A DNA stretch of 64,000 nt from a virus: positions 28,448 through 92,447 of the IMG/VR virus record IMGVR_UViG_3300017613_000561; one strand, written 5' to 3'. A program made the position numbers and the translations under genes. Shown piece after piece: positions 16,701 to 25,736 of this stretch; the stretch's first letter is position 1; every line of letters starts with the position of its first letter. The notes below the pieces were generated by a model. It was not told where the DNA came from. It saw only the letters and a program-made list of their open reading frames with translations, and ran no database searches.

Positions 16701-17846
16701 ATGAATATTGATTTGTGGGACAGAGTAGTACCGTACTTCAAGCCGTATGTAACGCCAGAGATGGGGGAGGCAGTAGCTAAGACAGTAGCCAGTGGTTGGC
16801 TGACCACCGGTAAGAAGGTAAAGGAACTGGAAAGTGAGTTCCAGAAGATGTTTCCTTCCAAGCAGGTACTGATGACGAACTCAGCTACAGCCGCCTCCCT
16901 TATCGCATTTGACGCCCTAGATCTGAGATGGTCTGAAGTAATCACCACACCGTACACGTTCAGCTCACCAGCTATGATGCTCCACCATTTGGGCGCTAAG
17001 CTTGTCATGGTTGACATTGATCCCAACACATTCAATATCGACCCCCACAAGGTACTGGACGCTGTAAACCCTAATACGAAAGCCATACTGCTCACCCACT
17101 TCGGTGGACGGGCCTGTGACTTGACAAGTATTTATGAGATAGCCAGTCAGTGTAACCTCAAGGTGATAGAAGACTGTGCTCATGCATTGCCTGCACGGTA
17201 CAAGGGCAGAACAGTGGGAGACATGGAGGCAGACGCTTCCTTTTTCAGCTTCTATGCCAACAAGACCATGACCACGGGCGAGGGGGGCATGCTGCTTTTG
17301 AAGGATGGAGCTGTAGCTGAGCATGCACGTAAGTTGTTGCTGCATGGATTTTCCACAGATGCCTATGACCGGTACACGAACTCAGGTGCGTCCTGGTTCT
17401 ATGATGTTGGAGTCGCCGGGTGGAAGGCCAATATGACAGATGTGGCTGCTACGCTGGGCTTGGAGCAGTTACGGTATTTGTACAGCATGTCAGATGATAG
17501 AACCCGAGTTGCAGAGATGTACACGTTGGCCCTGAAATCCTTGGAGTTGCACTGCCCGAGATTCACTTACGATTCAGCATGGCATGTATACCCGATCCTG
17601 GTGGATGCTGCCTACCGTGATGCCTTTATTGAGAGCATGAAGGAGAAAGGCGTTCACTGTTCAGTGCACTTCCGGCCGATAAACCAGCATTCCTTTTGGA
17701 AGGAAGTATTGCCTAGACACAGTACCCCAGTATCTGACAGTGTTGGAGCCCGAGTAGTGTCCCTGCCTATCTATCCGAACATGCCTATGGATAACGTGAC
17801 GTATGTAGTACGGGCTGTAACCGCTACGTTGAAAGAATTTGTATGA
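16701..17846 (+). CDS. DegT/DnrJ/EryC1/StrS PLP-dependent sugar aminotransferase
   Basis: SGWLTTG, NSATAA, IEDCAHA, FSFYANKTMTTGEGG (PLP lysine), SLPIYP motifs. Confidence 0.95.
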   Translation: MNIDLWDRVVPYFKPYVTPEMGEAVAKTVASGWLTTGKKVKELESEFQKMFPSKQVLMTNSATAASLIAFDALDLRWSEVITTPYTFSSPAMMLHHLGAKLVMVDIDPNTFNIDPHKVLDAVNPNTKAILLTHFGGRACDLTSIYEIASQCNLKVIEDCAHALPARYKGRTVGDMEADASFFSFYANKTMTTGEGGMLLLKDGAVAEHARKLLLHGFSTDAYDRYTNSGASWFYDVGVAGWKANMTDVAATLGLEQLRYLYSMSDDRTRVAEMYTLALKSLELHCPRFTYDSAWHVYPILVDAAYRDAFIESMKEKGVHCSVHFRPINQHSFWKEVLPRHSTPVSDSVGARVVSLPIYPNMPMDNVTYVVRAVTATLKEFV

Positions 17847-18466
17847 CTCCGCAAGAATACGTCAGCAAGGTCATAACTTTTTCAGATAGGGCCTCATGGG
17901 AGATGGAAGTGCTCAGTGTTTTAGACTGGGCCAATGTCTGTGGGGTCTATGCTTTGGACTATGGTAGTGGTTCTGGAAAGCTATGCTCTATCCTGAAGCG
18001 GCACTATGACTTTCAGTATGTTTGTGGTGTTGACATAAACACTGGGTTGTTGGCATATGCCAGGAAGACATACCCAGCCTTTACGTTTACGAACCCCATA
18101 GCCTTGCTTAGCAGCCCAATGACCTATGATATGGTGACCATGTTTCATGTGTTGGGGCGTGTACCTAATCCAATAACCACTTTGCAGATGATCAGGAATG
18201 TTTTGGTCGATAGGGGTAGGTTGTTGATAGTGATTCCCAATAAGGTGTATGACACCCTGATGGTACCGTACAATACGGTTACGGGTTATAAGGGTGATCC
18301 TACTATTTGTCACAGCTGGACACGAAGAGAAGCCATGAAGCTATTGCGAGCTTGTGGGTTTATTGACCTGGAGTACACCTATTTTGGTGAGCCAGTTAAG
18401 GGGTTTCCAGATATCCCCTGTCTTAGGTCACGCATAGCTATTCATGGGGTTGTGGATGAGCGTTGA
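17843..18466 (+). CDS. Class I SAM-dependent methyltransferase
   Basis: LDYGSGSG, GVDIN, YDMVTMFHVL..VPNP motifs. Confidence 0.85.
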   Translation: MTPQEYVSKVITFSDRASWEMEVLSVLDWANVCGVYALDYGSGSGKLCSILKRHYDFQYVCGVDINTGLLAYARKTYPAFTFTNPIALLSSPMTYDMVTMFHVLGRVPNPITTLQMIRNVLVDRGRLLIVIPNKVYDTLMVPYNTVTGYKGDPTICHSWTRREAMKLLRACGFIDLEYTYFGEPVKGFPDIPCLRSRIAIHGVVDER

Positions 18467-23135: not shown

Positions 23136-23833
23136 AAGTAACGAAGGCCAATAAGTATGCTCCTATACGTAGCATGGGGGCAGATAAAGTAGACCGCATG
23201 GAGGTGATGCTGGTGCAAGGTATGTCTTGCCCCAAGGTAGCTAAGAAGATTCAAGACGAATGGAAACTACTGCAGGACATAAAGACAGGCACGTTGACCA
23301 AACAGATACTACGCTATAAGAAAGAAGTGCTGGATTCTAAGCTACATAGCAAGTTATTGATCAAGACAACGGAGGACAATAAAGATACGAAGGGTACAGA
23401 TGTAAAGCAGTACAAGACTGTAATCAAAACGACCACCAAGCTTGATGTGATAGACGCACTGGAGGATTTGATACTGCTGCAGAACCATAGGGTAGCTAAG
23501 GTGTTCACCATGGAGGAGAGTTTGCCTACGTTGATGGGCACTCTACGCTATGAATTGAAAGAGCTGCGAGACATGATAAAGCAGTTATCAGACTTAAAAT
23601 TTGACTTAGGACTGGTAAAAAGACAACCTAAGAAGATTGTTGGATCTATAGACTTGCATTCACCAGAAGTTTTAGAGGATGAAGATGTACTTTCCAAGAT
23701 GCTCGCAGATAAGGGGGCCATGGATGATGCAACCACGGAAGTGTTTGCAGCCTTAGAAGCTATGGTGAAAGAAGCCGGGGAGATTGAGGATGGAGAGTTT
23801 ACTGACTGCGTACCCACTGACGGGGACAGTTGA
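23108..23833 (+). CDS. Putative terminase small subunit
   Basis: HTH-like N-terminus, helical body, directly upstream of and overlapping TerL. Confidence 0.5.
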   Translation: MADTGSVELKVTKANKYAPIRSMGADKVDRMEVMLVQGMSCPKVAKKIQDEWKLLQDIKTGTLTKQILRYKKEVLDSKLHSKLLIKTTEDNKDTKGTDVKQYKTVIKTTTKLDVIDALEDLILLQNHRVAKVFTMEESLPTLMGTLRYELKELRDMIKQLSDLKFDLGLVKRQPKKIVGSIDLHSPEVLEDEDVLSKMLADKGAMDDATTEVFAALEAMVKEAGEIEDGEFTDCVPTDGDS

Positions 23834-25736
23834 GCAGCAAAGATTTATATTTTACGCCCGCAAATGTATAGCCCAGTTTTATGGTATGCGGGCTGAGAGG
23901 ATCATAGATAAGGTCGAGGTTATCCAGGTGCTGGAGACCAAGATCAAGTTTTATCTCAAAGTAGTAACCGACATCAAGAACAAGAGTTTCGCCTTTGCAG
24001 ACTCCGAGCTTAAGAAGAAGGATATGTATGAGGTGCCCCCGGTGCCCATCCGGGATTTCCTGTTACGCCCGTTCTACCTGAACCTTGAAGGGCAGATATA
24101 CCCCGAAGTAATGACTGCCATGGAAGACCTGAATGGTGGTGGGTATGTAGAGGCAGTACTGACCGGTGCTATTGGTACTGCCAAGACCACTATCGCAGTA
24201 TGGACCATGGCGTATCAGTTGTACCTTCTGTCCTGCATGGAGAACCCCCAGAAGACCTTTGGACTGGAACGGGCCTCGGAGATTCTGCTGATATTCCAGT
24301 CGATAACCAAGGAGTTGGCTAAGGGGGTTGATTATGCTCGCTTCAAGGCCCTGCTGGAGAACAGCCCGTACTTCCAGAGGCACTTCGCCTACGATAAGAA
24401 CATAGAGTCGGAGCTTAGATTTCCGAACCGTATCATTGTTAAGCCTGTGTCGGGATCAGACACTGCTGCCATTGGTCAGAACGTGATGGGCGGTATCATT
24501 GATGAGCTGAACTACATGGCTGTAGTGGAGAACTCCAAGGCCAGTGTGGATGGGGGGGAGTACGATCAGGCAATCGCGGTGTACAACTCCATAGCTCGTA
24601 GACGTAAGTCCAGGTTTATGCAGCAGGGGGCACTGCCAGGAATCCTGTGCCTTGTCTCGTCCAAGCGGTACCCGGGCCAGTTCACTGACCTTAAGCAGGA
24701 AGAGGCCAAGAATGATCCTACGATCTACGTGTATGACAAGCGAGTATGGGACATTAAGCCAGATGCCTTTTCTAACGTGTGGTTCCAGGTGTTTGCAGGG
24801 GATGAGTCCAGGCACCCACGTATTATTGAAGAAGATGAGATTGTTGATGTCTCCGACAGGGATTTGATTATAGATATTCCTGAAGAGTACAGGATGGAGT
24901 TTGATCAGGATATCATCAATGCCCTGCGTGAAATCGCAGGTATGTCTACGCTGGCAAGACATCCGTTTATCATGAACACCGATTCCATTGCTGCCTGTAT
25001 GACTAATGATCGTCCGATAGTGAACAAGCACTGGGTAGACTTCAGATTTGAAAAGCTGGGGATTTACCAAGGTAGGTTTGCGGATCTGAATCGTCCACGA
25101 TGGGCTCATGTCGATCTGGGGCTCACAGCTGACTCGGCCGGTATATGCATAGGGTATGTCAAGGGGTTCAAGAAAGTAGACCGGGGAGACCACTACGAAG
25201 TACTGCCGGAGATAGTAGTAGATGCCTTGCTTGAAGTGAGGCCCCCTAAAGGTGGGGAGATCCAGTTCCATAAGATCAGAAGCCTGTTCTATAAGCTGAT
25301 AAGTATGGGGTACCCGTTGAAGTGGGTGAGTTATGACAGCTATCAGTCTACGGACTCCATGCAGATGCTGCGTAGTAAAGGTCTGGTGTCTGGGCATGTC
25401 TCCATGGACATCACCCGGGACCCGTATGAGATCACCAAGACAGCACTGTACGATCACAGGTTGTCGATACCGTTTCATGCAAAGCTACGTAAAGAACTAG
25501 CCTCGCTTGAGGACGACCCCAAGACCGGAGATATAGATCACCCGCCCAACGGGTCTAAGGATGTGGCCGATGCCCTTGCAGGTGTAGTGTCGGGCCTCAC
25601 AACCAGAAGAGAGATCTGGGTGCAGCACAAGATACCGACAGGGCAGATACCGACTTGGCTGACGACACCCAAGAAGGACAATATGAAAGCAGCACACGCC
25701 AAGGATATAGGTGACGATATTTCCGAAGTGATGTAA
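23784..25736 (+). CDS. Terminase large subunit
   Basis: Walker A GAIGTAKTT, Walker B GIIDE, nuclease motifs HVDLG and DHPPNGSKDVADA. Confidence 0.9.
   Translation: MRMESLLTAYPLTGTVEQQRFIFYARKCIAQFYGMRAERIIDKVEVIQVLETKIKFYLKVVTDIKNKSFAFADSELKKKDMYEVPPVPIRDFLLRPFYLNLEGQIYPEVMTAMEDLNGGGYVEAVLTGAIGTAKTTIAVWTMAYQLYLLSCMENPQKTFGLERASEILLIFQSITKELAKGVDYARFKALLENSPYFQRHFAYDKNIESELRFPNRIIVKPVSGSDTAAIGQNVMGGIIDELNYMAVVENSKASVDGGEYDQAIAVYNSIARRRKSRFMQQGALPGILCLVSSKRYPGQFTDLKQEEAKNDPTIYVYDKRVWDIKPDAFSNVWFQVFAGDESRHPRIIEEDEIVDVSDRDLIIDIPEEYRMEFDQDIINALREIAGMSTLARHPFIMNTDSIAACMTNDRPIVNKHWVDFRFEKLGIYQGRFADLNRPRWAHVDLGLTADSAGICIGYVKGFKKVDRGDHYEVLPEIVVDALLEVRPPKGGEIQFHKIRSLFYKLISMGYPLKWVSYDSYQSTDSMQMLRSKGLVSGHVSMDITRDPYEITKTALYDHRLSIPFHAKLRKELASLEDDPKTGDIDHPPNGSKDVADALAGVVSGLTTRREIWVQHKIPTGQIPTWLTTPKKDNMKAAHAKDIGDDISEVM

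Follow-up and report, generated by a model that had tools for sequence, protein, structure and literature searches.

What does a phage do with a set of amino-sugar genes placed directly against its terminase genes, and on which acceptor would such a sugar be put? The question is raised by a 92,447-bp contig of IMG/VR (IMGVR_UViG_3300017613_000561; CheckV completeness 100%), of which bases 28448–92447 form the 64,000-nt window analysed here; coordinates are those of the window. At 16701–25736, nine co-directional open reading frames (ORFs) on the plus strand encode a DegT aminotransferase, a methyltransferase, a 4,6-dehydratase, a WbqC-family protein, a PIG-L-family de-N-acetylase, a glycosyltransferase (GT), a ParB-like protein and the probable small and large terminase subunits (TerS and TerL). 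An earlier note had read this block as a candidate packaging-coupled system for the glycosylation of DNA or of the virion. Its nine genes and their names are borne out by the ORF check and by family and profile searches, all nine lying at the coordinates of Table 1. The cassette is best filed as a variant of the phage glycosylation cassettes, defined by the pairing of the GT with a protein of the ParB/Srx fold and devoid of the known base-activating enzymes. As for the acceptor, we tentatively favour phage DNA: a ParB-assisted, partial and post-replicative glycosylation, at an acceptor other than the known ones, is a reading to which we give somewhat less than even confidence.

In at least seven phage lineages, whose hosts are Proteobacteria and Actinobacteria, the GT family and the ParB subfamily co-occur and adjoin. 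A GT homologue is present in 14 phage records, all of them among the 28 that have this ParB subfamily; each of the 11 IMG/VR GT loci has a ParB gene within 10 kb, and about 25 of the 28 close ParB loci with sufficient flank have the GT. One GT-less exception among these close loci still carries an epimerase, an MgsA_C-like protein and PIG-L 5´ of ParB. The remaining full-length ParB matches were checked in the Vibrio V-YDF132 group and the Rhodobacter RcF cluster (Agrobacterium phage JP1 was left out); a divergent GT of the same family lies directly 5´ of ParB in V-YDF132 and the group PG28/VH2_2019 (three Vibrio phages), as it does in the RcF cluster. The two genes are also absent together. 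Among 34 phages of the Vibrio clade with a PPDK-like gene, ParB is found only in the four that have PIG-L/GT, about 30 close Vibrio relatives lack both GT and ParB, and both are missing at this position in Vibrio phage R21Y.

Arthrobacter phage KellEzio and Rhodobacter phage RcDurkin, both devoid of sugar-synthesis genes there, repeat the order GT–(75–100-aa ORF)–ParB. The pair usually stands directly 5´ of TerS–TerL; two contigs have the GT cassette immediately 3´ of TerL. Around this core, the sugar genes change from one cassette to another: DegT, SDR dehydratases or epimerases, UDP-glucose dehydrogenase, UDP-GlcNAc 2-epimerase and methyltransferases come and go, as do extra GT paralogues, one or two WbqC genes and PIG-L. 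The comparison proposed in the earlier note, asking whether GT–ParB–terminase stays constant while the sugar genes vary, was run and this pattern was found. Such co-occurrence and adjacency in many unrelated phages support a functional tie of the GT to ParB and the terminase neighbourhood, and the search for such cassettes gains a simple genomic marker in GT–ParB co-occurrence.

The ParB_N domain of the ParB partner covers residues 16–91, and the profile matches of this protein in the PDB, limited to residues 6–137, are to the N-terminal domains of Noc and ParB. The invariant motifs NPNxM and RI[VI]GGHHR (RIIGGHHRW in this protein; GGHHR in 10 of 10 homologues aligned) replace the CTPase motif GERRxRA, which is the CTP-binding motif of chromosomal and plasmid ParB proteins (CTP-dependent clamps at parS). 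Weak matches of the N-domain are to ParB-fold serine kinases (SerK, E 5e-8; SbnI, E 0.009). A conserved, acidic C-terminal domain specific to the family follows, and no clear DNA-binding domain was seen. Phage ParB homologues without a DNA-binding domain have been shown to activate a cognate thymine dioxygenase on double-stranded DNA, and the commonest neighbours of phage 5mYOX enzymes are GTs (31%), ParBs (27%) and terminases (19%) (PMC13229309). In its predicted domains, the ParB of the block matches the description of these dioxygenase activators, with a nucleotide-binding and a C-terminal domain and no obvious DNA-binding domain. It shares with ParB176 of the 5mYOX176/ParB176 pair the N-terminal nucleotide-binding fold, a C-terminal domain of its own and a place beside a DNA-modification-type enzyme near the terminase; the partner there is a dioxygenase, and the putative partner here a glycosyltransferase. 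A complex prediction for GT and ParB scored 0.07 against a mark of 0.32 and counts neither way.

DNA is the single most likely target because of the GT–ParB/Srx pairing, the published role of such ParB proteins, the apparent co-transcription with the terminase genes described below and the DNA-related accessory genes of these cassettes. The accessories are members of the SWIM/MgsA_C-like families and, in three loci (L008, L010 and L013), an ORF resembling dCTP deaminase that lies between GT and ParB. Of the earlier proposal that an unusual sugar is put on phage DNA, the gene content for the sugar and its transfer and the GT–ParB–terminase tie are upheld; the DNA target is what we infer.

The GT itself has a weak Pfam match (Glycos_transf_1, E 3e-4), no NCBIfam match, and a profile search of the PDB from its alignment gave nothing useful. 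Its AlphaFold model shows a clear GT-B/GT4 fold and, C-terminal to it, a conserved extension of about 115 aa. The family is tight, with 47 homologues of about 500 aa each, and the match to the Arthrobacter phage GTs runs over the full length. Its structural neighbours are GT4 enzymes with similar scores, among them SenB (Z 22.0), BshA (21.8), PglA (21.1) and MshA (20.0); the only GT in the list that acts on DNA is the arabinosyltransferase of phage HY126 (Z 18.2). Proven phage DNA GT-B enzymes resemble MshA/PglH, and their metavirome relatives lie beside genes for ParB-like proteins, terminases and epimerases (bioRxiv 10.1101/2023.12.21.572611). The GT-B fold is shared with the T4 alpha- and beta-glucosyltransferases and the HY126 5-hydroxycytosine arabinosyltransferase; these enzymes act on 5-hydroxymethylcytosine or 5-hydroxycytosine made before replication, with cytosine fully replaced, and neither feature is seen in the present phage.

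The sugar donor would be made by the phage. Best NCBIfam models are PseB for the dehydratase (180 bits, cut-off 408) and PseC for DegT (278 bits, cut-off 424), and both proteins score far below equivalog level. The conversion to a 4-amino-4,6-dideoxy sugar that had been proposed for this pair is therefore a fair inference, short of its stereochemistry, and from the enzyme families the donor would be UDP-4-amino-4,6-dideoxy-N-acetylhexosamine (HexNAc). The methyltransferase would then modify it, probably by N- or O-methylation of the sugar. The label "PglF-type" given before to the dehydratase needs correction, since the protein is soluble, of PseB/FlaA1 size and without the membrane domain that anchors PglF. 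The pseudaminic acid (PseB–PseC) and bacillosamine (PglF–PglE) pathways likewise start from UDP-HexNAc with a 4,6-dehydratase of the Polysacc_synt_2 family and a DegT aminotransferase, but equivalents of PseH, PseG, PseI, PseF and PglD are missing from the phage block.

Two further enzymes would tailor the sugar. The best NCBIfam match of the PIG-L protein, which is kept in most GT–ParB cassettes, is BshB1 (47 bits, cut-off 182). Since PIG-L, MshB and BshB use glycosides and not nucleotide sugars as substrates, its step probably follows the transfer of the sugar. The model of the WbqC protein gave no significant match by Foldseek, and NCBIfam has none for it. Exhaustive structural alignment places BshC first (4wbd, Z 12.7, root-mean-square deviation 3.4, 208 of 223 residues aligned), followed by the cores of class I aminoacyl-tRNA synthetases (LysRS-I, Z 10.5; GluRS, about 8) and MshC (Z 6.6). 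From this predicted BshC-like, class I synthetase-like nucleotidyl-transferase core, WbqC is a probable ATP-dependent amino-acid:amino-sugar ligase, which gives the uncharacterised WbqC family a testable function. Its substrate may be the 4-amine of the nucleotide sugar or the unmasked 2-amine.

Put together, the block would be a soluble, cytoplasmic glyco-tailoring cassette with a core of GT4 (about 500 aa) and ParB/Srx, placed directly 5´ of TerS–TerL. The donor would be made in-house and transferred, PIG-L would strip the N-acetyl group from the glycoside, and WbqC would ligate an amino acid onto the free sugar amine, so that a cationic aminoacylated diamino sugar would end up on the acceptor. 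This acceptor would most likely be replicated phage DNA, with ParB/Srx as the activator or adaptor that enables the GT on duplex DNA, by analogy with the ParB-dependent thymine dioxygenases. We envisage a partial or sequence-selective mark rather than a full base replacement, and the acceptor atom would differ from that of the known 5-hydroxymethyl and 5-hydroxy pyrimidines, or the enzyme that makes it would so far have escaped recognition.

Because the WbqC model matches BshC and class I synthetase cores, the set of GT4, PIG-L and WbqC appears, at the level of folds, to repeat the bacillithiol/mycothiol order of glycosylation, de-N-acetylation and aminoacylation. A retaining-type GT4, a PIG-L enzyme and a ligase of the BshC or class I synthetase fold stand together in BshA/BshB/BshC and MshA/MshB/MshC as they do here. 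The likeness has its limits: the three phage proteins all lie far below the equivalog cut-offs, WbqC matches only the catalytic core of BshC (540 aa), and the phage donor would be further modified by 4,6-dehydration, 4-amination and methylation.

This mirroring opens a different reading, with which the folds agree equally well and in which the cassette makes a soluble aminoacyl-amino-sugar glycoside akin to bacillithiol or mycothiol. ParB/Srx would be a kinase (SerK/SbnI-like) or NTPase that primes the acceptor, GT4 would glycosylate it, PIG-L de-N-acetylate and WbqC aminoacylate it, and the product could be a redox cofactor or a cationic counter-ion packed with the DNA. The acceptors of the leading structural matches of the GT are small (SenB, BshA, MshA, LmbT and a tetrahydrobiopterin GT), the N-domain of ParB matches SerK and SbnI, and its GGHHR resembles Srx-type phosphotransferases; moreover, the proteins are all soluble and acidic, and no base-activating enzyme was found in the genome. 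Several points set against these make the small molecule unlikely. The minimal modules of KellEzio and RcDurkin are GT plus ParB without PIG-L or WbqC, and R21Y has WbqC-like genes without the GT, so that the three enzymes need not occur together. Nucleic acid is indicated by the constant site next to the terminase genes and by the neighbours that resemble SWIM/MgsA_C proteins and dCTP deaminase. The hosts, being Proteobacteria, use glutathione, and no thiol-specific step was identified in the pathway. As an observation apart, R21Y, which lacks GT and ParB, carries two WbqC-like genes directly 5´ of TerS (L017:6186-6962 and L017:5410-6153), which suggests that a WbqC/BshC-like ligase can work without the phage GT and PIG-L.

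The layout of the block bears on when it is expressed. Junction coordinates confirm that the genes overlap or abut, as the earlier note had described: the overlaps are 4 nt (DegT/methyltransferase), 23 nt (methyltransferase/dehydratase), 16 nt (dehydratase/WbqC), 16 nt (WbqC/PIG-L), 4 nt (GT/ParB), 28 nt (ParB/TerS) and up to 50 nt (TerS/TerL), and PIG-L and GT abut with a 0-nt gap. A ribosome-binding site (GAGGGG) precedes the ATG of DegT at 16701. The strong sigma70-like promoter sites nearest to the block lie at 14439–14467 upstream and 25943–25971 downstream. Since the leader before DegT has only a weak promoter-like site and no convincing terminator was found between the two strong promoters, the sugar genes and the terminase genes look, from their sequence, like one transcription unit. 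Gene order and this shared unit are what the term "packaging-coupled" comes down to, and the claim is weakened to that extent. Nearly every gene of the genome is on the plus strand. Megablast against phage records found no near-identical record for the block.

Apparent expression with late and packaging genes would also suit a decoration of the virion, in which the GT puts its tailored amino sugar late in infection on capsid, tail or packaging proteins, comparable to what is seen in mycobacteriophages and chloroviruses. Mycobacteriophages are an established case of virions glycosylated by phage GTs, proteins can be substrates of GT-B enzymes, and actinophages have sets of GT, methyltransferase and "glucosaminyl deacetylase". 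A protein acceptor would leave the tight coupling of GT and ParB/Srx without a rationale. Alignments of the major capsid and tail-tube proteins from six genomes with the GT and one without it show no Ser/Thr-rich tails and no insertions that track the GT, although glycosylation sites need not show in the sequence. We regard a virion or other phage protein as a quite unlikely target.

The region 5´ of TerS is variable among relatives, which would fit cargo as well. In such a case, the cassette would be a moron between the recombination and packaging modules that alters an O-antigen, capsule or lipopolysaccharide (LPS) precursor on the cytoplasmic face, leading to superinfection exclusion or lysogenic conversion, and ParB would be an accessory of packaging or of a plasmid-prophage that stands nearby by chance. 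Among cellular proteins, the sugar enzymes have their closest homologues in surface-glycan pathways, and DLP3 and DLP5, two relatives with Stenotrophomonas as host, are temperate phagemids whose authors suggested a modification of LPS (PMC7326821, PMC5834331). Members of a sister ParB clade (about 35% identity) often precede TerS–TerL without this GT, so ParB could be a packaging accessory. O-antigen and seroconversion modules have membrane components, but a Pfam scan and hydrophobicity analysis of the block found no flippase, polymerase, GtrA/B, GT-C or initiating phosphoglycosyltransferase. A hydrophobic 19-mer scan found no transmembrane segment in the nine products, the sole segment above 1.6 being the conserved Rossmann core strand of the GT. 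Furthermore, the genes overlap those of the terminase and do not form an autonomous moron with its own terminator, and a chance insertion hardly explains the co-occurrence of GT and ParB across lineages in two host phyla. A role in the host envelope, or a status as mere cargo, is very unlikely on this balance.

Phage DNA as the target has to be weighed against evidence of its own, to which the sister ParB clade just mentioned also belongs. The leading structural matches of the GT (SenB, BshA, MshA and LmbT) are small-molecule GT4s that score slightly above the lone DNA GT, and both partners are acidic (GT, isoelectric point (pI) 5.5, net charge -13; ParB, pI 4.9, net charge -15). No base-activating enzyme was found, so that no known acceptor would be made. 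In six-frame searches of the whole 92-kb genome, Tet/JBP (PF12851), ThyA (PF00303) and ThyX (PF02511) reached E<=1 nowhere, although a very divergent 5mYOX could escape, and neither TGT nor dCTP deaminase was found. The absence of a hydroxymethylase, thymidylate synthase or TET/JBP gene, noted before for the window, holds and extends to the complete genome. Alignments of the conserved g42, g47 and g103 proteins show no HxD...H-type pattern that would reveal a hidden TET/JBP. Tet/JBP is found in none of the 13 other GT–ParB genomes and ThyX or ThyA in only seven of them, and both ThyA and ThyX are missing in at least five complete GT–ParB genomes (the present phage, G002, V-YDF132, KellEzio and RcDurkin).

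The avoidance of palindromes weighs on the same side. In this genome, 20 of the 64 6-bp palindromes are absent (GGATCC, 0 against 21.6 expected; GGGCCC, 0 against 19.8), with a mean z of -1.10 for 6-bp palindromes and 0.02 for non-palindromes. All six relatives examined, with or without the GT, avoid 6-bp palindromes, and the avoided set differs by phage: Summit lacks 28 of the 64 (observed/expected ratio 0.50; 0.74 in R21Y), and GGCC occurs once against about 247 expected in R21Y and not at all against about 213 in V-YDF132. Phages with fully substituted glycosylated bases are not known to avoid restriction sites. As the avoidance is seen whether or not the GT is present, and the avoided sites include all four bases, the DNA has stayed exposed to type II restriction and no base seems to have been shielded over evolutionary time. 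A blanket anti-restriction function, as first suggested, is weakened by this.

Published restriction data need to be read in the same light. The sole experimental hint for the clade comes from digests, in which DLP3 DNA resisted 15 enzymes (PMC7326821) and 4 of 36 enzymes cut the DNA of DLP5 (PMC5834331). Ten of the 15 "resisted" enzymes have no site in the DLP3 genome, also a point against modification, and the "restriction resistance" of DLP3 is largely explained by missing sites. However, DLP3 DNA was reported uncut by SmaI, ClaI, EcoRI and NdeI (PMC7326821), for which the genome has 68, 18, 7 and 4 sites, respectively, so that some modification is still suggested. In the literature searched, no paper was found that identifies the modification of either Delepquintavirus or the Vibrio relatives. 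Claims of the kind "restriction-resistant, therefore modified" need re-examination for this phage clade.

The favoured DNA target is best compared with the phage DNA sugar-hypermodification clusters that depend on 5mYOX/TET or on thymidylate synthase (Pyle et al. preprint 2023; O'Toole et al. PNAS 2026; Lee et al. NAR 2026). These share with the present cassette an MshA/PglH-type GT-B, a phage-encoded supply of nucleotide sugars, glycans that vary between relatives, and ParB-like, terminase, epimerase and methyltransferase neighbours. They differ from it in several respects: no 5mYOX, ThyA or ThyX homologue is found here or in several complete GT–ParB genomes, the phage GT is a distinct family with a conserved C-terminal extension at about 500 aa, PIG-L and WbqC are present, and GT–ParB genomes strongly avoid restriction sites. 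If DNA is indeed the target, a class of phage DNA glycosylation would bypass both known entry points (5mYOX and thymidylate-synthase homologues) with an unusually elaborate cationic sugar, which would bear on anti-defence, on sequencing and cloning artefacts and on enzymatic tools for DNA labelling.

A more specific proposal is that GT and ParB/Srx form a two-component system for glycosylating DNA without any hydroxymethyl- or hydroxy-pyrimidine precursor. The aminoacylated, methylated diamino-dideoxy sugar would be placed after replication at selected sites, on a canonical base, the backbone or a position activated by ParB/Srx. In this stricter form, the proposal is doubtful. If it is true, DNA hypermodification would gain a novel acceptor chemistry, and the WbqC/BshC-like ligase fold a novel role, the tailoring of a DNA-linked sugar.

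Guidance of the modification by dispersed palindromes had also been suggested. The palindrome GCACTTAAGTGC has 15 exact copies in the genome, mostly between genes or at gene ends, and belongs to a TGCA-N6-TGCA family that is present in every relative in lineage-specific versions. TGCAATTAATTGCA has 25 copies in V-YDF132 and 45 in G001, TGCAATCAATTGCA and its complement have about 25 in Summit/DLP3, and TGCAAGTGGTTGCA and its complement have 21 in G002. R21Y, which lacks ParB and GT, has a half-degenerate TGCA-N6-TGCA form in 12 copies, so the palindrome is not evidence for guidance by ParB, and it is not supported as its parS either.

Table 1. Block genes, their flanks and the dispersed palindrome in the window.
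Feature	Position	Strand	Evidence or remarks
g47, basic (pI 9.0) SWIM zinc-finger + MgsA_C-like protein	14502..15662	+	ESM Atlas feature match, MgsA_C/SWIM cluster, 0.91
Intergenic leader before DegT	16514..16700	+	weak promoter-like TAGACA...TATAGT (site at 16535)
DegT/PseC-type pyridoxal-phosphate sugar aminotransferase	16701..17846	+	PF01041 DegT_DnrJ_EryC1, E 2e-101
Class I S-adenosylmethionine methyltransferase	17843..18466	+	Methyltransf_23/11/12/25; E 3.5e-15
Short soluble UDP-HexNAc 4,6-dehydratase, PseB/FlaA1 size, 346 aa	18444..19484	+	PF02719 Polysacc_synt_2, E 2.4e-95
WbqC-family protein, 223 aa	19469..20140	+	PF08889, E 3e-21; model pLDDT 96.8
PIG-L/LmbE-family de-N-acetylase, BshB/MshB-like	20125..20805	+	PF02585, E 6.4e-18
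GT-B (GT4-like) glycosyltransferase, 497 aa, cassette core	20806..22299	+	AlphaFold pLDDT 92.9
ParB/Srx-fold protein, constant GT partner	22296..23135	+	PF02195 ParB_N, E 1e-11; phrog_26387, E 8e-73
Small terminase subunit (TerS), probable	23108..23833	+	assigned from position, N-terminal helix-turn-helix-like segment and acidic C-terminus
Large terminase subunit (TerL)	23784..25736	+	tblastn; true start may be a downstream ATG
GCACTTAAGTGC copies	868, 6715, 12006, 18624, 27911, 29438, 31752, 35764, 44120, 51000, 51072, 55037, 63671		two more copies upstream of the window

The TerS candidate has no family match in Pfam, PHROG or NCBIfam searches, and it is conserved between ParB and TerL in the relatives. 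TerL is 50–58% identical to annotated TerL proteins of the ~80-kb Vibrio siphophages (V-YDF132, PG28 and the SIO-2/VHS1 group), as well as of the Stenotrophomonas Delepquintavirus phages (DLP3, DLP5 and Summit), Rhodobacter RcZahn and Rhizobium TM16. The genome also encodes DnaB, primase, helicase, RecA, RuvC, PolA, portal, a tape-measure protein and a PPDK-like dikinase.

The first gene of the upstream transcription unit, g47, has no Pfam match and is a possible accessory of the cassette, with homologues inside the GT cassettes of V-YDF132, L007, L011 and L014; another MgsA_C-like family, its members some 400 aa long, is present in five other cassettes. These two families without an AAA+ domain, one of them with an N-terminal SWIM zinc finger, recur in or beside GT–ParB cassettes (g47 in the window; L007:3345-4631, L009:3709-4977, L013:6713-7909, L015:8777-9958, L016:1198-2433 and L047:4034-5131). 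The dCTP-deaminase/dUTPase-like gene between GT and ParB was seen in three metagenomic relatives (L008:1648-2103, L010:3627-4082 and L013:13330-13779), and ThyX homologues lie near the terminase in several relatives, not in the present phage.

The segment 37281–43993 of the window contains the PPDK-like dikinase, two DSP-type phosphatases and g103, a 348-aa protein with the motifs TRExRH, GGxxW, HNxGxxFNK and VDW, for which an ESM Atlas search returned nothing. These genes were rejected as cassette members, being core genes of the clade that also occur in GT-less Vibrio phages. In DLP3, gp99 (L044:17295-17975), published as a functional Erm(45)-like erythromycin-resistance methyltransferase, is encoded within the sugar cassette, with the aminotransferase on one side and the GT on the other, and may instead be a sugar methyltransferase. 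Finally, two insertions set the major capsid protein of the present phage (52950–53942) apart from all six relatives aligned, one of 13 aa (DTAAITGAFDPAA region) and a short one, SSPQP.

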